Part shown: piece by piece, positions 1,365-17,538 of the stretch
Numbering within the stretch: position 1 is the stretch's first letter
How the letters are laid out: each line of letters opens with the position of its first letter
Assembly: GCF_004010195.1 (NCBI RefSeq)
Contig: NC_057718.1
Span: forward strand, 77,856,523-77,876,522
Reading direction: 5' to 3'
Origin: Chiloscyllium plagiosum
Taxonomy: Eukaryota
DNA length: 20,000 nt
Translations under genes and position numbers: made by a program
The notes under the pieces: generated by a model
What the model saw: only the letters and a program-made list of their open reading frames with translations
What the model was told of the DNA's origin: nothing
Databases searched by the model: none

Positions 1365-1652
1365 AATCAAGCAGGAAATCGGAGATACATGCGGTAAAGG
1401 ACCATCTGTAATAATGGGTACTTTAATCTGCATATAGATTGGGCAAAACATATTAGTCAGAATACTGTACAGGAGAAATTCCTACAGTGTATATAGATAG
1501 TTTTCTGTACCAATATATTAAGTAGCCAACCACATAACAGGCCATCTTAGAAGGATATTGTACAATGAGAAAGGAATAATTGGGAATGCAACTGTGAGAG
1601 TTGGGGATGAACAACCATAATATGACAGCATTTTTCATAAAGATAAAGAGTA
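1365..1652 (+). mobile_element. CR1-clade LINE ORF2 endonuclease fragment
   Basis: Degenerate VIMG(D)FNLHIDW, QAILE..LYNEKGII and LGMNNHNM (SDHN motif) typical of CR1 endonuclease. Confidence 0.8.
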
Positions 1653-1656
1653 AGGA

Positions 1657-2210
1657 AAATAAACAAAGAACTGCGGATGCTGTAAATCAGAAACAAAACA
1701 GAAATTTGAAAAACAGAAACAATAGGTGGAGATGGAGCCCAGAGAGAGAGAGAAGGCAGCTAGGCAGACGAAGGAATGGCTAAAGATCAGCCTTGAAGAA
1801 TCAATAGCTGCTAATGGGGACCACTTGTGGCTGACAATGGGTTGTTTGCTATTGCAGCCCATGTGATGACAAGGTCTTGCGTGTGGGGTTGAGGTAAGGA
1901 CATGGGAGAAGATGCTCAGGTCCTAAAATTATTGAACTCGATATTGAGTCTTGAAGGCTGCAAGGTCCCTAAGTGAATAATGAGGTGCTGCTTTTCAAGC
2001 TTGTGCTGAGCTTTGCTGGAGCACTGCAGCAAGCTTGAGACAGAGATGTTGGTGCTTTCAGTGTCAGGTAACAGTGTCATTGTCAGGGTCATTTTGCATT
2101 AAAAAGGTAAGTGTTCAGCAAAGTGGTCTCCACAATATTGAGCAGACCACATTGTGAGCAGCGAATACAGTTGACCAGATTGAACAAAGTGTGGGTAAGT
2201 TGCTGTTTTA
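1657..2210 (-). mobile_element. Penelope-like element 3' end: GIY-YIG endonuclease remnant plus pLTR
   Basis: Minus strand reads NLVNCIRCSQCGLLNIVET (VYCIRC..C..YIGET-like), HFAEH and LLQCSSKAQHKLEKQHLIIHLGTLQPSRLNIEFNNFRT* (stop 1916-1918). The end at about 1657-1700 resembles the CAGCATCTGCAG tail of the other pLTRs in this window. No hammerhead core is visible in this copy. Confidence 0.85.
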
Positions 2211-3483
2211 GAATTAGAATGAGCCTTATTGTGACATGTACTCACATGAAGAAAAACATCTTTCCTGCAACAGTTCTGTAACTGTGACTTTTAACTAATA
2301 AGTCAGAGACATTTTAAGAGGAATCTGACCACCTTGTGTCACTTCACAACTAATGGAAGCATTTGGAGAAAAATGACTGAAACAGCCATAAGGATCATGA
2401 GAAGTGTCATGACGATCACTTCAACATCAGTACCTGGGAATAAAGACTGCTGAACATGTGTTTCTTGTTTTTCCCTCTCTGTCAGTCTGTAAGGGGGAGT
2501 TTATTATATGCTGATGGTTAACCTGCAACTAGAGTTTAATTATTTGTAATAAATACTAATTGTTGTTCAGTTCAGAAACCCACTCCACATCTTCTATCAA
2601 CCTGGATCTGTAAAGGTCAGAAATATTGTGAAACTTTGCATATTTTTAAAAAAATTAACTTTTGCATTGATTCTGAAAATAGCAGAGTTTGATTTTCAGT
2701 GTGCTCTCAATGAGTTGTAACAGTGGCTAAAGAGTTAATTAATGCATTTGTGTTAACTTTGCAAAATTCTCTACATTTAGGAAAGTTCCATCATGCCGGT
2801 CATGAAAGAGAGTAAAGCTGGACATATATTAAACCTCAAGGGAATTGTGAGGAGTTAGTATTATTTTGTGAAAGAGATATCATGTTTAACTAACTTATTT
2901 AAGTTTTTTGAAGGAGTAATGTGTGTTGTGGATAAAAGGAAGCCTGTACACACAGTACTTGGATTTCCAGAAGGCATTATAAGAAGGTGTCACCTTAAAG
3001 ATTATGTTAGAAAATAAATGGTCATGGTGCAAGGACAAAATATTACCATGGATAGGTAACTGGTTGGCTGGCAGAAAACAGACAGTATGCATAAATGAGC
3101 GTTTCTCTGATTGACCAGACCTGACAAGTGGGGTGTCGAAGGTGTCTGTGCTGTGTTCTCAACTTTTTACAATTTACATCAACAACTTAGGCAACAGGAG
3201 CAAAGTCATGGTAGCTAAATTCACAGATGACACAAAGATAGGTAGGAAAGTATTTTGTGAAGAAAACATAGATAATTTGGGATGGATATAGAAAGGTTTA
3301 GTGAGTGGGCAAAAATCTGGCAGTGGGAGAAAAATGAGGGAAAATGTGAAGTTGTATGTTTTGGTGGGAAGAATAAAAAAGCAAAGCACACTTAAATAAG
3401 GAGCGCAGAATTCTGAGGTACAAACAGTCCTAGCTGTTCTAGTGCATTTATCACAAAATGGTAGTATGCAGGTACAACACATA

Positions 3484-3785
3484 GCTGGAAATGTGTTGCT
3501 GGAAAAGCGCAGCAGGTCAGGCAGCATCCAGGGAACAGGAGANNNNNNNNNNNNNNNNNNNNNNNNNNNNNNNNNNNNNNNNNNNNNNNNNNNNNNNNNN
3601 NNNNNNNNNNNNNNNNNNNNNNNNNNNNNNNNNNNNNNNNNNNNNNNNNNNNNNNNNNNNNNNNNNNNNNNNNNNNNNNNNNNNNNNNNNNNNNNNNNNN
3701 NNNTGCTGCCTGACCTGCTGCGCTTTTCCAGCAACACATTTCCAGCTCTGATCTCCAGCATCTGCAGACCTCACTTTCTCCTCAA
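3484..3785. mobile_element. Palindromic Penelope pLTR-derived mini-insertion, copy 1 (centre in assembly gap)
   Basis: 3483-3526 is the exact reverse complement of 3704-3747 (44 bp). Flanked by direct repeat AGGTACAACACATA at 3470-3483 and 3786-3799. Unpaired tail 3748-3785. Confidence 0.9.
3543..3703. other. Assembly gap (161 N)
   Basis: Run of N at the centre of the inverted repeat. Confidence 1.
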
Positions 3786-3984
3786 AGGTACAACACATAA
3801 CCAAGAAGGCTAATTGGATGCTATACTTTTATTATGAAAGGAACTGAACATGAAAGCAAGAATGCTATGCTTTAGTTTTGCAGGGTTAGTGAGAATACGT
3901 TTTAAATACTGTCAGTTTTGGTTTCCTTGTCTACAAAAGGATGGATACACGTGGATATGGTTCAGAAGAGGTCTACTGAATGTC

Positions 3985-4505: not shown

Positions 4506-5264
4506 TTACATAAAAATTATTAAATTGATCTATGTAATATGGAATGAATTCACGTGTGGCGTATAGCTTTAAGATATCACAACCAGAATTAATTTCCTTG
4601 CCACAAGCTCAGAATTATATTGCCACAAGCTCAATAACAAACAGAAATCAAATTAAAAACATATTTGGCTTTTTAATAAAATGCAGCCAGTAACTGGGAA
4701 TAAACTAATGTTTGCACAGTAAGGACTTTGTTGCAAAAACAAAACTCTACCAACAAATATAACAAACACAGCATTGGGAAAAAGCTACTTGTAATTCAAT
4801 TCTGGAGTTCACTCGATGTTCCTATTCAAATATGTGATGGTATCTTATCTCCATGATTAAATTACAGCTGCACAATTATTTCCTGCCATTCCTAGTTACA
4901 CATTATTATATTACTCTTTGTTCCCTACTGTACTTATAGATATAGATTCATTATTTGAATAACCTATTTTGTTTTATTTGCAATTTTTGAAACAAAATTA
5001 GCACAAAAGTACAATATAGAAAAAAAATTACTTTTAGTTAATATACCAAAAACATATCAGACAAGAAAAATACATATTTGCTAAGTTTTTATGATATCGA
5101 CATCAATTTTAAAAAGTTTATTTCAGCCCATGGGGATTTACAAATGAATGATTATTCAGTCTGGCTACTGGGATGGCAGAGCATGAGTGTGGCACTGCAC
5201 ACCTTTACTTTAAAAACTTGCAGTTACTGACTATCTCTGGTCGAAGGTCAGCTGACAGAAAATT

Positions 5265-6265
5265 GTACATAGGAATAAAGGCATAGGAATGGAAATAAAC
5301 CATTTAGCCCCATTAGCCTGGACAACTGTACAATGAAATTATGGTTGATCTGCAGCCTACTGCTTTAGAACATACCCAATATTTTTTAATGCCTTTTGTT
5401 AATAAAGACCTACCAATTGACCCCAAATCAGTTGTTGTCTGCAAAAGATTCACATTTCAACAGGCATTTGTGTGCCAAAATGTTTCCAAATTACACTACA
5501 CCTTTTGGACTACTCCCCCTGTCCTAGACTCTTCAACTAACAATGATTTGTAGTTAAAATTTAAACTATCTACATTTCAGTGAATACAATCATAGTTTAT
5601 ATAGGCTCTTCTTGTAATTTGACACTTGGAGTCCATGCATCATTCTGATAAATACATACTGCAATCCAAATCAATTATACCTTTCCTCAGGTGTGGTATC
5701 CAGAACTTAATAGAATATTCGAGAATTGGCATAACCCTGACTCTGTATAATTGCAGCAGGCCTTCTACCTCTATGTATTCTAGATCTCTACGCATAAATA
5801 TTAATATTTCATTAGTCTTTTGATCATTTTCTACACAGGACATTTTATTGATCATTGTACTTAGACTCTTGAGCTTCTATGGTTTTATTGTTTTAGAGTA
5901 CATTGTTTTAACTTTCCAATATTTAGAAAGCATAGTCATTTTTATTTCCAATGTTGATGACTTCACATTCGTTTAAATTGAAATCCATTTGCTACAGCTT
6001 TGCCCATTCACTTAATCTATCAATATCTCTGTAATATTATGCATCCAACTGCACTGCTTATGTTGTTGCCCATCTCATTGTCATGAGCAAATTTTGATTT
6101 GTGGCTTTCTATCACACCATCTAAGTCATTAATAGATAAGAAAAATAGTTGTGGCTCCAACACAGATTGTTGTGGGACACAACTAATGGCACCCTGCCAA
6201 TTTGAGTACCAATCCATAAACACTATTCTCTTTTTTTTTGCTGTTCAGTCAATTACTTCAACATA
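5265..6265 (-). mobile_element. CR1-clade LINE 3' portion (RT to 3' tail), old
   Basis: ORFs 6020-6223 (SCVPQQSVLEPQLFFLSINDLD..SKFAHD) and 5640-5855 (LQLYRVRVMPILEYSIKFWIPHLRK); CATAGGAAT repeats at about 5268-5290 are the reversed short-repeat tail. Confidence 0.85.
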
Positions 6266-6616
6266 CACATTGGTGCCAGAATTGGGGTAAGTGGGATCTG
6301 TATTGATGGGTTGGTCTCCACCTGAAGTGTGCTGGAGCCAGTGGTCTTGCAAGTCCCATAACTAGGGACACGGAGAGCATTTTAAACTGAGGGAGACAAG
6401 GGGTGATAAATCAATAGAGTCAAGAGGTATATCCAAAATATCCAAAAAAGAGATACATTAACATGAGAAACCACAAAACTGACCCTGATAAAAAGGGATA
6501 GAGAGTATGGATCCAAGAGGCAAAAGTGAGAACTGCAGATGCTGGAAACCAGAGTTTAGGTCAGAGTGGTGCTGGAAAAGCACAGCAGGTCAGGCAGCAT
6601 CCAAGGAGCAGGAAAA

Positions 6617-6648
6617 TCGACGTTTCGGGCAAAAGCCCTTCATCAGGA
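6617..6648 (-). ncRNA. Minimal type I hammerhead ribozyme core (Penelope-type)
   Basis: Minus strand: tc-CTGATGA-A-GGGC-TTTT-GCCC-GAAA-C-GTC-ga. It has the CUGANGA box, perfect 4-bp stem II, GAAA box, loopless palindromic stem III (ACGT) and GUC cleavage triplet. Stem I is only 2 bp here. Confidence 0.8.
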
Positions 6649-6650
6649 AA

Positions 6651-6680
6651 CTGATGAAGGGCGTTTGCCTGAAACGTTGA
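6651..6680 (+). ncRNA. Minimal hammerhead ribozyme core, slightly decayed copy
   Basis: CTGATGA-A-GGGC-GTTT-GCCT-GAAA-C-GTT: core boxes intact, one G-U in stem II, GUU triplet; the 5' strand of stem I is lost at the palindrome centre. Confidence 0.65.
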
Positions 6681-6829
6681 GTTTCCTGCTCCTCGGATGC
6701 TGCCTGACCTGCTGTGCTTTTCCAGCACCACTCTGATCTACACCCCAGTATGGATCCAAGAGTCAACTAATAAATAACACTAGAATTTATAAAGAGAGTG
6801 AAGGATGAAGACGAAAGGCTCTGTACATG

Positions 6830-7016
6830 AGTGGTGGAGGTTGGTACAATTGTAACATTTAAAAGCCATCTGGATGGGTATATGAATAGGAAGGGCTTAG
6901 AGGGATGTGGGCCAAGTGCTGCCAAATGGGACTAGATTGGGTTGGGATATCTGGTCAGCGTGGACGAGTTGGACCGAAGGGTCTGTTTCTGTGCTGTGTA
7001 TCTTTATGACTCTATA
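6830..7016 (+). mobile_element. HER1/CR1-like LINE 3' terminal fragment
   Basis: VVEVGTIVTFKSHLDGYMNRKGLEGCGPSAAKWD* followed by 3' UTR TTGGACCGAAGGGTCTGTTTCTGTGCTGTG and TATGACTCTAT tail; near-identical family in reverse at 13841-14200. Confidence 0.85.
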
Positions 7017-7480
7017 TCAATAAGTTGCCTTCAATCCCATGAACTTCAACTTCAGTTAACAATCTCTAATAAAGTTATTTATAATGTCTTCTGGAAGTCA
7101 ACATAAATAATGACCATAGACATTCTTCTGATCACTACTTTCAAAAGATGTATTCAGCTTTAGGCATGATTTACCCTTTACGAACACAAGCTGGTTCACT
7201 CTAAGCAGCTGAAAGTTTTCAAGACGTAGGTCACTGTCTCCTGAATTGTAGACCTTAGTAACTATCGACAACAGATTTTAGGCTATCTGACCTCAAACTG
7301 GTTGAATTTCTTTTCTCACATTTTGAAAATAGCTGAGTACATGTTCAACTTTTCAATCACAATGTAAGGATTCTAAATTGAGGGAACTATGGAAGTTTCT
7401 AGTTAAAACCTCTACAATGTTCTTATTTACTTCCTTCAAAACCGTGAAATGAAGAAACCATCTGATAACTTGTCCCTTGC
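7017..7480 (-). mobile_element. CR1 RT fragment, probable upstream continuation of 5265-6265
   Basis: Minus strand IIYVDFQKTL (LDFQKAF-like), EVHGIEGNL and degenerate upstream RT motifs. Confidence 0.65.
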
Positions 7481-7905
7481 ACTTGCACCTGACTACATTG
7501 TTTTTCCAAATATGATCGTAAAACTTTTATGTTAATTTGATACATATTCACATTTTGCTTTACAGTTCGTATAGAAAACAGAGTTAACATTTCAAAGCCA
7601 GTGACTCTTTAAGAATTTCTCTATCAATTTCTCTTTTTGTCACAGTTTTCATTATCTGTTTTGTCATCCTTTGCAGCTATTATTCTTTCCAAATTGTTAA
7701 AATCTGCGATTCCTTGCATTCTCACATACTTTGAAATTTTTTTAATCTATTATCTATTTCTTCTTCAGTTAAACATGACTGTTTTCTTTAACAAATAGAG
7801 CACTTGACCCTTAGGGACATAAACCAGTTCTGTAACATACTATCTTCATTTTGAACACTCATCATCTGTCATCATAAAAACCTAATAAAAAATGTACTCA
7901 CTTAC

Positions 7906-8005
7906 TGTGGATAGCCTCACTTAGTTCTTTAGCAGCTGCTTTGAGTTTATCCTTTTCAGACACCATGGCCCATAATTTCTGCTGTGACAAAAACAGTGAA
8001 AATTC
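7906..8005 (-). CDS. Candidate host-gene exon (100 nt), product unidentified
   Basis: Minus strand: acceptor ttctgattttcag, exon EFSLFLSQQKLWAMVSEKDKLKAAAKELSEAIH (only open frame of three), donor A|gtaagt; lies in sequence I do not recognise as repeat. Confidence 0.6.
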
Positions 8006-8399
8006 CTGAAAATCAGAAGTGCCGGCCTCAAAATTATCAGCTGTTTCCATTTAAATGCCATTTTGGTATCCTAGCTGTTTGGAACACATTCTGTAGAGTA
8101 TACAGGTCAGTTTCAGTACATTTCTTTTGGACAGCCAGAAATTGATTCTTGCTGTGTTATAGGAGAAAACGCTGGTTAATGTTCGAGTATCTGATAGATA
8201 TTTAAGTTTTATTCTATTTTTAATGGTCAAAGTCATAAATTTTGAGCAAGAGAAGAGCATTAAAGCCACAGATTGCAGGTTTACTTGTTGTTAGATGATT
8301 GGTGGGATGATATCATAAGCCACAACATAATGAAAGTCCAGTGAAAACTAGATGGTAGAATTTGAATATTTCTAGCCTTAAAGTAAAAGTAAGGTCTTT

Positions 8400-9060
8400 A
8401 TTTTGTGCTTAGGTCTCTAGTCTATTTTTTTCTACCTTTTCCTTAAAAACAACTTCAAATTACAGTAAATTGTAAAGAGTGGAGAATTCTTAAAGTGTAA
8501 TGAGCAAGGCTACTACAGGAATTAATTAATAAATTAAATAAAGTAGAAAAATGATGGCAGGATAGGTAATACATTTCTGCTGTAGCATGTAGGAGTTGCT
8601 GGACACAAGGGTGATCTAGGGCAAAAAACGTTCAAAAGAAGTGTTTGCAGATTAAGGAACTCTGGATTCAAGTTGAGGAGCTGGAGTCTGAGCTGCAGGC
8701 ATTGCAAATATAATGGAGGGAGGACTTAATGGAAACTCAGGGACACTTCACTCTAGAAGGTGATCATACACTTCAAATTTGGCTATTCAAATTTGGTCTG
8801 CAATCAGGGGCAAGAGGATGTGACCTTAGATGAGGCAGATATGGAGAACAGGCGGACACATTTCAGGAGCTTTGGCCTTGGTAACTATCTAACATTTAAG
8901 GTTCTTGTAAACTTTGTGGACGAGAACAAGGACTGCAGGGAGGAGGAATGAACTGACCATGACATCTTGGTACTGAAAATAATTAAGCTGGGATGGGGAT
9001 GGAGATAATAGGAATGCAGTAATGGTAGTGGAAAGTATAATTTGGGGAGAACCTATTGTC
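8400..9060 (+). mobile_element. CR1 5' region and ORF1 N-terminus (zinc finger/leucine zipper type), decayed
   Basis: MMAG.VIHFCCSM.ELLDT..KCLQIKELWIQVEELESELQALQ (degenerate Cys motif plus heptad coiled coil), LSN..KVL motif, and degenerate start of the esterase domain near 9015-9050. Confidence 0.65.
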
Positions 9061-9061
9061 T

Positions 9062-9847
9062 GGAGCTGTCGTCAAGATATCTGGTGTATAGAGTTGGTTG
9101 GAGGTCCTGTGCAGCAAGGAAGTCTTGTTAGAACTTGTGCATGAAAATGTTGGCATATTGGAATGCAAATTTGGTCCCCATGGATGTTCCGTGTATCTGG
9201 ATGAAGAACTCGTTCTAGATTAGAGTGGTACTGGAAAAGCACAGCAGGTCAGGCAGCATCCAAGGAGCAGGAAAATCCCTCGGATGCTGCCTGACCTGCT
9301 GTGCTTTTTCAGCACCACTCTAATCTAGACTCTGGTTTCCAGTATCTGCAGTCCTTGTTTTTACCACCTTGAAGAACTCGTTGTCAAAGGTGAAAATGTT
9401 GTGGTCGAGCATGAAGCGGATGAGTTGTAGGATGGTGCTCGGAGATTGGCAGTTGTTGGTTGTGAATACTGAGGCTGTTGCAGCGATGCCGTCATCGTGG
9501 GAGCTGCTGGTGTAGAGTGCTGAAATGTCCATTGTGACGAGGAATGTTCCCACTTCGACTAGACTGTGGGTGCTGCGTTTTTGTAAGAAATTTGTTGTGT
9601 TGCAACAGAAGCTGGGGGTCCCCTGTAAAATGGGTTTCAAGATGCCTTGGACATAACCAGAGAGGATCACACACAGGGCCCCATTGCCTGATATGATGGG
9701 ACGTCCAGGTGTGTTGACTTTGTGTATCTTCGGAAAGCAGTAGAAGTCACCTATGCAAGAAGTACATGGGATGAGAGCATGTAAGGAACTCTTTGGGACT
9801 GGATCAAACCTCATACCTTTAATGCATTGTCTGAGCTGAGATGTCAC
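9062..9847 (-). mobile_element. Penelope-like element reverse transcriptase fragment, interrupted at 9215-9369
   Basis: FYCFPKIHKVNTPGRPIISG, LVTMDISALYTS, NIFTFDNEFF; after removing the insert it continues IQIHGTSMGTKFAFQYANIFM..LYTRYLDD (RYLDD at 9068-9082). These are PLE-type RT motifs. Confidence 0.92.
9215..9369. mobile_element. Palindromic Penelope pLTR-derived mini-insertion, copy 3 (centre deleted)
   Basis: Arms about 9214-9265 and 9278-9329 are reverse complements. TSD TGAAGAACTCGTT at 9202-9214 and 9370-9382. Tail 9330-9369. No CTGATGA present. Confidence 0.92.
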
Positions 9848-10177
9848 TTTTTTAAATAAAATCTTAAATTATCGCAGAATGTGACTTAAAAGAAGTTCTG
9901 GGTTTTACATATTAATGAACCAAAACCTGCAACCCATTTGAAAAGATGAAAGACTTAACAACAATCTAGGTTTATTCAATATATCATTTCAGTTGCATGA
10001 CACTATAATCTTTTATTTAAATTCTGTGTCTTATGGTCCTGCTCCTTAACTACCTGATGAAGGAGCGGCACAACGAAAGCTAGTGCTTCCAAATAAACCT
10101 GTTGGACTATAACCTGATGTTGTGTGATTTTTAACTTTGTCCACCCCAGTCCAACATCGGCTCCTCCACATCATGGC
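9848..10177 (+). mobile_element. Penelope-like pLTR of a second family, inverted relative to the adjacent RT
   Basis: Contains CTGATGA..GAAAGCTA hammerhead motif followed by AATAAACCTGTTGGACTATAACCTG, recognised from memory as a shark PLE terminal repeat; directly abuts the truncated 5' end of the RT fragment. Confidence 0.75.
10051..10085 (+). ncRNA. Degenerate minimal hammerhead ribozyme
   Basis: tac-CTGATGA-A-GGAGCGGCACAAC-GAAA-G-CTA-gtg: both core boxes, palindromic AGCT stem III, CUA triplet, 3-bp stem I (UAC/GUG); stem II disrupted by mutations. Confidence 0.6.
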
Positions 10178-11062: not shown

Positions 11063-14000
11063 AAGACCATAAGACCATAAGATATCAGAGCAGAAATTAG
11101 GCCATTCAGCCCATCAAGTCTGGTCTGCCATTCAATCAGGGCTAATAAGTTTCTCAACCCCATTCTCCCGCTTTCTCCGCATAACCCTCGATCCCCTTGA
11201 CAATCAACAACCTATCTATCTCTGTCTTAAGTATATTCAATGACTTGGCCAAACAGCCATCATTGCCACAGGGCAATGAATTCTATAGATTCACCACACC
11301 CTGGCTAAAGATGTTTCTCCTTATCTCTGTACTAAAAGGTCTTCTTTTTACTCTAAGGCTGTACCCTCAGGTCCTAGTGTCTCTGACCAATGGAAATATC
11401 TTCCCAACATCCATTTTGTCCAGGCCATTCAATATTCTATAAGTATCGATTATACATCCCCTTTATCCTTCTAAACTCCGTCAAGTATAAACCTAGAGTC
11501 CTCAAACTTTCCTCGTGCTAAGCTTTTCATTCCTGGGATCATTCTCGTGAACCTGTTCTGAACATGCTCCAGGGCCAATATATCCTTCCTGAGATATGGG
11601 GCCCAAAACTGCACACAATACTCCAAAAGCAGTCTGACCAGAGCCTTATAGAGCCTCAGAAGTACACGCTACTTTTATATTCAAGTCCTTTTAAAATAAA
11701 AGCCATCGTTGCATTTGCCTTCCTAACTGCTGACTCAACCTGCAAGTTTGCCTTGAGGGAATCCTGAACTAGAACACCCAAGTCTCTTTGCACTTCAGAC
11801 TTCTGAATTTTCTCCCCATTTAGAAAATAGTCCATGCCTCTATTCTTCCTACCAAAATGCATGACATCACACTTTCCTACATTGTACTCCATCTGCCACT
11901 CTTTGCCCATTCCCCTAACCTGTCCAAATCCTTCTGTAGCCTCTGCACCTCCTCAATGCCACTTGTTCCTCTACATATCTTTTCATCGTTTGCAAACTTA
12001 GCCAGAGTGCCCTCAGTTCCTTCATCTAGATTGTTAATGTATAAAGTGAAAAGGTTGGTCCCAACACTGAGCCTTGCGGAGCACCACTTGTCACTGGCTG
12101 CCATCCTGAGAAGGACCCTTTTATCCCCACTTGCTCCTTCCTACCAGATAGCCAAGCTTCTATCCATGCTAACACCTTGCTATAATACCATGGGTCCTTA
12201 TCTTACAGAGCAGCCTCCTGTGCAACACCTTGTCAAAGGCCTTCTTGAAGTCCAGACAGATAACATCCATTGGCTCTCCTTGGTTTTACATGCCATTATT
12301 TTCTCAAAGAATTCTAGCAGATTTGTCAAATCCTACCAAAGTTAGGCTAATCAGTCTGTAATTTTCCATTTTTGCCTTACTCCCTTTTTAAATAGTGGTG
12401 TCACATTAGTAATTTTCCAGTCCTCTGGGACCCTCCCTGATTCTAGCGATTCCTGAAGGATCACCACTAACACCTCCAATATCTCTTCAACTATCTCCCT
12501 TAGAACACTGGGGCATAGTTCATCTGATCCAGGCGATTTATCTACCTTCAGGCCATTCAGTTTTTCTAGCACCTTCTCCTTGGTGATGGCCACCATACTC
12601 AACTTGAAACACTTCACAATATTTTGGGATATTACTCATGTCTTTCAAGGTGAAGACTAATGCAAAGCAATTTTTTAGTTCCTCAGCCATTTCCTTGTTC
12701 CCTATTACTATCTCTCCAGCATCATTTTGCAGAGGTCCAATGTCCACTTTTGCCATTTATATATCTAAAGAAACTCTTTCAGTCTTCCTTTATATTACTG
12801 GCTAGCCTACCCTCACATTTAATCTTCTCCCTCCTTATTTCTTCTTTCATTCCCCTCTATTGGTCTTTGTAAGCTTCCCAATCCTTTGGTTTCCCACTAC
12901 ACTTCACCGCACTATCTGCTTTCTCTTTTGCTTTTATGCTATCCCTGACTTCCCTAGTCAGCCATGGCTGCCTCATCCTCCCTATACCAGGCTTCTTTTT
13001 CCTCAGGATGAACCTTTGCTGTGTCTCCTGTATTACTCCCAGAAACTCCTACCTTTACTGTTCCATTGTTTTTCCTGTAAGGCTCCTCTCCCAGTCAATT
13101 CTACGCAGCTCCTCCCTCATGTCTCTGTAGTTGCTTGTATTCAGCTGTAAAACCAATACCTTTAGTTCTATCTTTTCTCTCTCAAATTGCAGAGTAAATT
13201 CAATCATATTATGATCACCGCCTCCTGAAGCTCCCTTATCTCCTTAAGCTCCTGTATCAAGTCTGCCTCATTGCATAACACTAAATCCAGTATCGCCTAT
13301 TCCCTAGTGGACTCTACAATAAGCTGCTCCAAAAAGCATTCCACAACTTCCTTTTCTTGCAATCCACTACCAAACTGATTTTCCCTGTCCACCTGCATAT
13401 TGAAATCCCCCAAGATCACTGTGACTTTGCCTTTCCTACACATCTTTTCTAACTCCTGGTGTATTTTGCACCCTAGCTCCTGACTAGTATCTGATTCTAC
13501 TTCATTTCTTACTATTAATTTAATTTCATTTCTTACTAATAAGGCAAATCTACCCCTCTACCCACTTCCTTATCTTCTCAATAGGATGTAGATTCCCTTG
13601 CAGCCACGTCTCCATGATTCCCGCCTCGTCATACCTGCTAATTTGATCTGTGCCACAAGCTCATTTACCTTATTACTTATCCTGCATGCATTCCAATATA
13701 ACCGTCAGTCTTGTATTAACTGTCGCTCTTCTCATTGTCATTTGTTTGCCCAGTGTGCTTGAATTTTGATTGTTAACCCTTTACAAATATTCTGTCCTAC
13801 TTCTGTCTGTGCTGAAAACTTTAATAACTTCTCTTGAGCTATAGACTCATAGAGATGTACAGCATGGAAACAGACCCTTTGGTCCAACTCGTCCATGCCT
13901 ACCAGATATCCTAAATTTATCTAATCCCATTTGCCAACACTTTCCCATATCTCTCTAAAACTCTTCCTATTCACACACCCATCCAGGTGCCTTTTAAATG

Positions 14001-14340
14001 TTATAACTGTACCAGCCTCTACCACTTCCTCTGGCAGCTCATTCCATACACACACCACCCTTTGCATGAAAACGTTGCCCCTTAGGGACATCCTGTACTT
14101 CTGCACTCCCCCAACCCAGGGAGGCACTCCCCCAATCTTATCTATTTAATGTATCCATGGCCCTTGTGATTTTATAAACCTCCATAAGGTCACCCTTCAG
14201 CTTCCTCCTCCTTTAATTTGGGTTTTTTAATTTTCCCTAAAACTTAATCCTCCCCCCACCTATTTATTTTAACGCCCTGTCTATAGCCCTAGTTATGCGA
14301 TTCGCTAGGACTCTGGTCCCAGCACGGTTCAGATGAAGAC
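11063..14340 (-). mobile_element. CR1 LINE, ORF1 end through ORF2 to 3' tail (best preserved copy; internal deletions, frameshifts)
   Basis: (AAGACCAT)n reversed tail at 11063-11083; ORFs 11656-11910, 11877-12104 (FTLYINNLDEG..AKFANDEK), 12351-12617 (KSPGSDEL.P..PEDWKITNVTPLFKKG), 12538-12756; ILGDFNMQVD at about 13390-13417; ORF1 end LHLNRAGTRVLANRITRAIDRALK* at about 14265-14338. Confidence 0.93.
13841..14200 (-). mobile_element. HER1/CR1-like 3' fragment nested in the 11063-14340 element
   Basis: ORF 13921-14127 LRGNVFMQRVVCVWNELPEEVVEAGTVITFKRHLD; 3' UTR and tail match 6830-7016 in reverse. Confidence 0.9.
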
Positions 14341-16730: not shown

Positions 16731-17538
16731 AGTCATACAGTCATACAGCACAGGAACAGACCCTTTGGTCCAGCATTCCATGCCGAACATAATCCCAAAC
16801 TGAACCAGTCCCACTGCTTACTCCTGGCCCATATCTCTTCAAATTTTCCTATTCATGTACTTATCCAAATGTCTATTAAACATAATTGTTCCCAGATCCA
16901 CCACTTTCTCAGGAAGTTCATTCCACATGTGAACCACCTTCTGTGTAAAAATATTTGCCCTTCGTATCTTTTTCAAAACTCTCTCCTCTCACCTTAAAAA
17001 TGTGTCCCCTAGTCTTAAAATCCTCAATCCTAGGGAAAAGACAAGCATTATTAACTCTATCTATATCATTCATTATTTTATAAATTTCTATCTGATCACC
17101 TCTCAGCTTCCTACGAATCAGTGAAAAATGTCACAGCCTTTCTTAATAACGCAAACCTTCCATACCCAGCAAGATCCTGATAAATCTCTTCTGAACCCTC
17201 CAGCCTAATAATATATAATTGAGCAAGCAGAACTGAACACTGTACTCCAGAAGAGGCTTCATTAATGTCCTGCACAATCTCAATGTGACTTCCGACCTCC
17301 CATACTCAAAGGACTGAACAATGAAGGCAAGTATGCTAAATGCCTTTTTAATCACCTTGTCTGTATATGATGCAAATTTCAAAGAATTATATACTTGCAC
17401 CCTTTGGTCTCTGTGTTCTACAACACTACCCAAGGCACTGCCATCAATTGTATAAGCCCTATCCTTGTTTGTTGTACCAAAATGCAATACTTGCATTTAT
17501 CCAGATTGAACTCCATCAGCCTTTCTTCAGCTTATTGA
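16731..17538 (-). mobile_element. HER1/CR1-like 3' fragment nested in the previous element
   Basis: Reversed (AGTCATAC)n tail at about 16730-16748; ORF 17143-17496 QVLHFGTTNKDR..LCRTLMKPLLEYSVQF..RVQKRFIRIL. Confidence 0.88.

Follow-up and report, generated by a model that had tools for sequence, protein, structure and literature searches.

Insertions of Penelope-like elements (PLEs) are known to carry an extension of 30-40 bp at one end, beside an inverted and 5'-truncated copy of the element (PMC8557442, PMC3846280). In PAc, a Poseidon element of the green anole, the hammerhead is located ~110-120 nt from the 3' end. Its open reading frame (ORF) opens at helix II, and reverse transcription begins 111-118 nt into that frame; the tail is bounded by two start sites, and in vitro both strands of the target are cut and extended by the protein (PMC11167929). 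Inverted copies are not discussed in the main text of that paper, where the sole 'inverted' is a blocking group. The minimal hammerheads of metazoan PLEs have a type I core, an extra base before helix II, a G10.1-C11.1 pair, a palindromic 15.2-16.2 segment and a short helix I; pairs of such motifs on opposite strands, ~100-700 bp apart, probably derive from truncated PLEs, and sharks are not named in the accessible part of the source (PMC4209133). Animal non-LTR retrozymes, reported in one chondrichthyan genome, are short, non-coding, hammerhead-bearing and PLE-derived, and consist of head-to-tail tandems with at least two hammerheads on the same strand (bioRxiv 10.64898/2026.07.22.740005).

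The window analysed here is a stretch of 20,000 nt from Chiloscyllium plagiosum (GCF_004010195.1, NC_057718.1:77,856,523-77,876,522), and all coordinates below are window positions. It contains a hairpin insertion, copy A, which is a clear example of the known kind of PLE insertion and not a new ribozyme system. Copy A is probably a dead, fixed and old insertion that holds only the 3' end of the element, copied twice head to head. No description of this shark family was found in the literature, and a deposited repeat-database consensus may well exist.

Architecture of the hairpin insertion

The layout of copy A is as follows.

6504..6519, no strand: target-site duplication, left copy; 16 bp, exact, the last 2-3 bases being common with the family tail end
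6520..6553, minus strand: 34-nt 'tail', the 3' end of the direct copy, unpartnered; a one-sided tail of 30-40 bp is known from PMC8557442, PMC3846280 and PMC11167929
6554..6649, minus strand: direct, tail-bearing arm, a PLE terminal repeat whose 5' truncation lies 3 nt upstream of hammerhead C3; family contigs follow it as far as 6649 before diverging
6619..6646, minus strand: complete minimal type I hammerhead motif by motif inspection, with a predicted cut between 6619 and 6618
6650..6650, no strand: junction base fitting the parent of neither arm when contigs are compared with the window sequence, probably untemplated or mutated
6651..6743, plus strand: inverted arm without a tail, its truncation coinciding with hammerhead C3 (arm alignment, core inspection)
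6651..6678, plus strand: defective hammerhead core, with A x G at 2.1-1.1 (helix I absent), G10.1-U11.1 and a GUU triad
6744..6746, no strand: three bases between the inverted arm and the duplication, unmatched in the direct arm (arm comparison)
6747..6762, no strand: target-site duplication, right copy; exact repeat of 6504-6519

The first-pass annotation had described a 227-bp palindromic element with 93-bp arms. The hairpin itself is real, with arms of 93 nt each (6554-6646 and 6651-6743) that are 92% complementary and separated by a 4-nt spacer. Copy A is asymmetric, however: the 34 nt of 6520-6553, present at one end only, have no partner in the opposite arm, and the 227 bp therefore do not form a single palindrome. 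Hammerhead, arm and tail follow one another in that order on the minus strand, which makes 6649 to 6520 the direct copy; the inverted copy is 6651-6743. What had been read as a GAAA apex is indeed a 4-nt spacer between the arms, but three of its bases belong to the parent, where they precede the minus-strand core on its 5' side, and are not a dedicated loop.

Other elements of that description stood unchanged. The exact 16-bp direct repeat flanks the insertion (6504-6519 and 6747-6762; rough chance ~3e-7), and since the final 2-3 bases of its left copy also match the family tail end (family contigs begin at 6518), the true duplication of copy A measures 13-16 bp. The arms differ at 7 of 93 positions, three of the mismatches being transitions at CpG (6603/6694, 6619/6678, 6627/6670), as had been proposed. 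The claimed absence of coding capacity also holds, with stops in all six frames of the 227 bp (6520-6746) and no ORF.

Copy A resembles the complex insertions of endonuclease-bearing (EN+) PLEs described in PMC3846280 and PMC8557442 in its head-to-head inverted repeat, one-ended tail, target duplication and 5' truncation, and differs from them in its total length of 227 bp and in having neither an ORF nor a second direct repeat; the duplications here (13-16 bp) are longer than the 8-10 bp of the rotifer PLE examples given there. The distance from the tail end to the first base after A9 is 120 nt, which places the hammerhead as in PAc (PMC11167929), a likeness of description and not of aligned sequence, and PAc is a full coding element, unlike copy A. 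With its one-sided tail, its head-to-head inverted 5'-truncated copy and its target-site duplication, copy A shows structural features by which an EN+ PLE insertion is recognized; the single ORF for a reverse transcriptase with a GIY-YIG endonuclease is absent from the stub, which a truncation would lead one to expect.

Hammerhead cores and their folding

The cores were read with the hammerhead numbering and the NUH rule. Two hammerhead cores, one per strand, had been claimed for the innermost part of the hairpin; both motifs are present but they are not equivalent. The minus-strand core comprises CUGAUGA, an extra A, a 4-bp helix II with G10.1-C11.1, GAAA, the palindromic ACGU and a GUC triad, and its helix I has only 2 bp, followed by two U-U mismatches. 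It agrees with the feature list for metazoan PLE minimal hammerheads in PMC4209133. The plus-strand core departs from that list at 2.1-1.1 and at 10.1-11.1, and its truncation at C3 means that 2.1 is unable to pair with 1.1, leaving the core without helix I, so that the claim of one ribozyme core per strand is in effect wrong. Compared with the opposite-strand pairs reported in PMC4209133, as far as these are described there, the two cores of copy A are only 4 nt apart, one of them is defective, and helix II has 4 bp. Copy A shares its small size, lack of coding capacity, hammerhead and PLE origin with the non-LTR retrozymes (bioRxiv 10.64898/2026.07.22.740005), but its head-to-head arrangement with one complete core places it outside that class.

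A motif scan of both window strands gave four hammerhead-like matches, namely the two copy A cores, one at 10054 in another repeat, and one at 73. Recourse to hammerhead models, as the first-pass annotation had advised, did not bear out the call: an Rfam search yielded no hammerhead among 15 matches up to E 5, all of them below cut-off, and detected neither core. The hammerhead call thus rests on motif inspection against the published description. MicroRNA families were considered and rejected, the Rfam matches being far below cut-offs and attributed to long hairpins.

As RNA, copy A has a predicted folding energy of -181.5 kcal/mol (z -24.3), a stability equalled by none of 200 shuffles. In the computed fold of the full element, the probability of being unpaired is at most 0.023 for C3-A9, and opening the core is calculated to cost 28.6 (minus) or 37.1 (plus) kcal/mol; even when folded alone, the minus arm is predicted to favour an alternative pairing of its core. 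The earlier suggestion that the hairpin buries its cores is thus supported by computation: in any read-through RNA both would be hidden within a long duplex, and by these models the locus most likely has no ribozyme function. Dimer cleavage has reportedly been described by Lunse and colleagues.

Related copies and competing origins

A relaxed arm motif occurs at six places in the window (0 expected by chance), and these pair into three head-to-head sets, copy A and two others.

9215..9369, plus strand: copy B, inverted arm and direct arm with tail, with a different centre and no hammerhead core; 13-bp duplication 9202-9214 / 9370-9382
3484..3785, plus strand: copy C, of another subfamily, with the layout of copy A; 14-bp duplication 3470-3483 / 3786-3799

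In all three copies the tail stands at one end only, the outer ends agree, and the inverted arms terminate within ~2 nt of one common point, whereas the centres differ in the two copies where they can be read (A and B). The duplications of A, B and C are 16, 13 and 14 bp. The centre of copy C is longer than that of copy A and is hidden by an assembly gap at 3543-3703. This gap (161 N) is the sole one in the window, and its position at the centre of copy C would be expected if palindromes break assemblies. The arms of one copy share variants of their own (for copy C, 42/42 positions agree within the copy, against 32-36/42-44 in comparisons with the others), so both must derive from one template or one subfamily. 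Fold-back stubs account for all three copies in this window, unlike the complex EN+ PLE insertions described in PMC3846280 and PMC8557442. Within copy B, 9223-9320 draws matches to Rfam microRNA families with E ~1e-7, far below cut-off, and such stubs could be mis-annotated as microRNA genes.

The family was also followed outside the window by aligning four of 24 listed public sequencing runs (3 DNA, 1 RNA) to 6150-7150 at 85% likeness. In the three DNA runs 176,166, 185,907 and 249,808 contigs aligned, part of them representing a second repeat at ~6830-7016; summed depth, which is not a copy number, reached millions on the arms, while most of the flanks had tens to low hundreds. In the same runs the match up to 6649 gives way to other sequence in 1363, 1404 and 1511 contigs, showing that the parent extends past the copy A apex. 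Relative to the mean over 6626-6659, summed depth at 6651 is ~1.5%, 0.9% and 2.0%; the copy A junction is therefore not the standard form of the family, though a minor subfamily is possible. Joints between arms are numerous (15 displayed and 1268 more), several having distinct end points and filler letters (6646-6704, 6648-6703, 6580-6669). Nine of the 15 displayed are marked 'between: not known', and one, the 'opposite strands' joint 6617-6682, was rejected as a mirror alignment of the unbroken arm. The high depth of some of the joint contigs (2968 in one run) might reflect junction subfamilies that were amplified.

The left junction of copy A is bridged in a third organism, by a contig that reaches 40 letters into the element and differs at 31 of ~410 bases (flank divergence ~7.5%); bridging records in two further runs, with 25 and 26 letters inside the element, were left out under a rule requiring 31. 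A bridged insertion in a diverged species indicates an old, shared event, consistent with 7/93 arm mismatches. The empty allele was not seen among the joints displayed. One contig in each of two DNA runs (~single-copy depth), together with four RNA reads, has one extra A behind 6651; if these contigs come from the orthologous locus, those animals would have a plus-strand core with different first bases.

The first-pass annotation had left the origin between an extreme PLE truncation product and a non-autonomous ribozyme-bearing unit. The former is supported by the one-sided tail, the inverted copy, the long duplication and the centres that differ between copies. The latter is improbable; it supposes a pre-formed palindrome with the copy A centre that is transcribed and then retroposed as a whole, a PLE protein acting in trans. 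It would account for the hairpin form, similar outer extent and clean duplications of all three copies in the window, for the variants shared by both arms of one copy, and for the joint contig (6602 to 6678) whose depth of 2968 contrasts with a flank depth of ~16-25. Copy B, however, has another centre and no core, many different joints exist, and depth across 6651 is only ~1-2% of that on the adjacent arm. The high-depth joint falls at a CGA triplet common to both arms, where repeated microhomology joining explains the depth equally, and a fully double-stranded RNA (-174 to -182 kcal/mol) would probably be a poor template.

The variable centres could also come from later deletion. It is, however, quite improbable that a longer inverted PLE structure was formed first and lost its centre afterwards through the instability of long palindromes. 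The longer centre of copy C, which the assembly leaves unresolved, fits such a course, as do the microhomology-mediated deletions in PLE copies reported in PMC3846280. Against it, the copy A junction lacks microhomology and has one base that fits neither arm, and 5' truncation with an adjacent inverted copy is described as the primary product in PMC8557442.

Selection on the copy A locus as a host-exapted double-stranded RNA, serving as an editing substrate or small-RNA source, is highly improbable. The fold is very stable and the insertion is common to another species, but the divergence between the arms (7/93) is about that of the flanks between species, no compensatory change is seen, and the Rfam microRNA matches are all far below cut-offs. 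The RNA run, of which ~2% was read, gave zero depth in the unique flanks 6150-6489 and 6762-6795, which is weak evidence against exaptation; reads of the family are present in it, and 97% of them run on unlike the copy A locus. This portion of the run has no pile-up of read starts or ends at copy A, and the library is unable to settle self-cleavage; for 5000-8500 no RNA dataset is listed. The RNA run has 28 A>G places, against 15-19 in the DNA runs; these were not taken as A-to-I editing, since its reads stem from other copies of the family and the DNA compared is not of the same animal. A miniature inverted-repeat or foldback DNA transposon, a class with terminal inverted repeats and a fixed duplication length, is next to impossible for these short, non-coding, palindromic and very abundant copies, since their inverted repeats are not terminal (34-nt one-sided tail), their duplications vary in length (13, 14, 16) and a hammerhead motif lies at the distance expected of a PLE end.

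In the surroundings of copy A, possible exons on the minus strand, at ~7902-7981 and 834-964, emerged from a crude splice scan; a homologue search with the latter found nothing, nor did Pfam in three frames nearby. A host intron and processing by ADAR or Dicer, as envisaged in the first-pass annotation, found no support here. The very high-copy repeat at 6830-7016 that adjoins copy A, which resembles a LINE 3' end, has inverted relatives at 13840-14026 and 16731-16880.

Coding relatives and a model of stub formation

Copy B interrupts a PLE reverse-transcriptase remnant (9068-9862, minus strand) whose best relatives are shark proteins with 66-71% identity and a reverse-transcriptase domain; several more distant matches also bear GIY-YIG. 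Pfam and PDB searches returned nothing for the remnant itself. It shows that PLEs are present in this genome, and it is the target of copy B, not its parent. The wider region 9068-10175 appears as a second PLE insertion with an internal inversion, in which the minus-strand remnant lies beside a plus-strand terminal repeat and copy B is nested; the terminal repeat has a decayed hammerhead at 10054-10082 (plus), with the palindrome AGCU and a broken helix II.

A connection between the tail and a PLE ORF is suggested by a second region. The tail matches at 22/25 positions at ~1666-1690 (score 38; maximum of 32 in 60 shuffles), located 3' of a minus-strand frame, 1919-2050, that corresponds to the C-terminal end of GIY-YIG-type proteins. 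This frame matches 25 proteins; GIY-YIG was found in one of nine scanned, below the Pfam cut-off, and the shared end of these relatives aligns to a full protein with reverse transcriptase and GIY-YIG (E 1e-4). Judged from sequence similarity, the link would thus come from a sister family and not from the exact family of copy A. The region 1640-2140 (minus) is a third PLE-like fragment, with a GIY-YIG-type C-terminus followed by a tail similar to that of copy A; no hammerhead core was detected between the two. Neither the fragment at ~1640-2140 nor that at ~9068-10175 showed a flanking duplication. Exact-pattern scans of metagenome, viral and prokaryote collections gave 0 loci, shark DNA not being expected there. 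The predicted proteins P0086, P0096 and P0107 have a PLE endonuclease end fused to unrelated domains (7TM receptor, ATP synthase c, RNase H) and are probably gene-model artefacts.

The layout, fixed outer ends, variable centres, shared arm variants and age of the stubs, all observed directly, can be combined with published work on the anole PLE into a model of staggered nicks and priming at two sites. By analogy with that element, a PLE reverse transcriptase/GIY-YIG protein would nick the two strands of the target at positions 13-16 nt apart, and each nick would prime copying of the same kind of RNA, the outer start site giving the arm with the tail and the inner start site the tail-less arm. 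Both copies would stop early, after ~130 and ~95 nt, and would then be joined at the apex, while fill-in would create the target duplication. The hammerheads are merely carried along with the terminal repeat. An alternative route to the same product may be the self-priming by fold-back that PMC3846280 proposes for rotifer PLEs.

The stubs might constitute a large fossil record of two-ended PLE priming in which a share of the inner ends lies exactly at the hammerhead cut site, a reading that we consider doubtful. In copy B the inverted arm starts directly after the GUC triad, and two high-depth joint contigs pass into the inverted arm at 6678, a single base away from the cut. An inner end at the cut site is nevertheless found for one of four readable inner ends in the window, and the lead is weak against a ribozyme-independent reason, the shared CGA triplet that favours joins there. 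If true, it would be genomic evidence that a minimal ribozyme cuts its template RNA in vivo and sets the length of the insertion; template cutting by the hammerhead was not seen for the anole PLE.

Copy A alone matters little, as one old copy among very many. The stubs do bear on assembly and annotation, given the gap in one of the three copies and the weak microRNA matches of another. As a population, they make two questions of PLE biology testable by counting, namely how inverted copies are formed and whether the hammerhead cuts its template in vivo.
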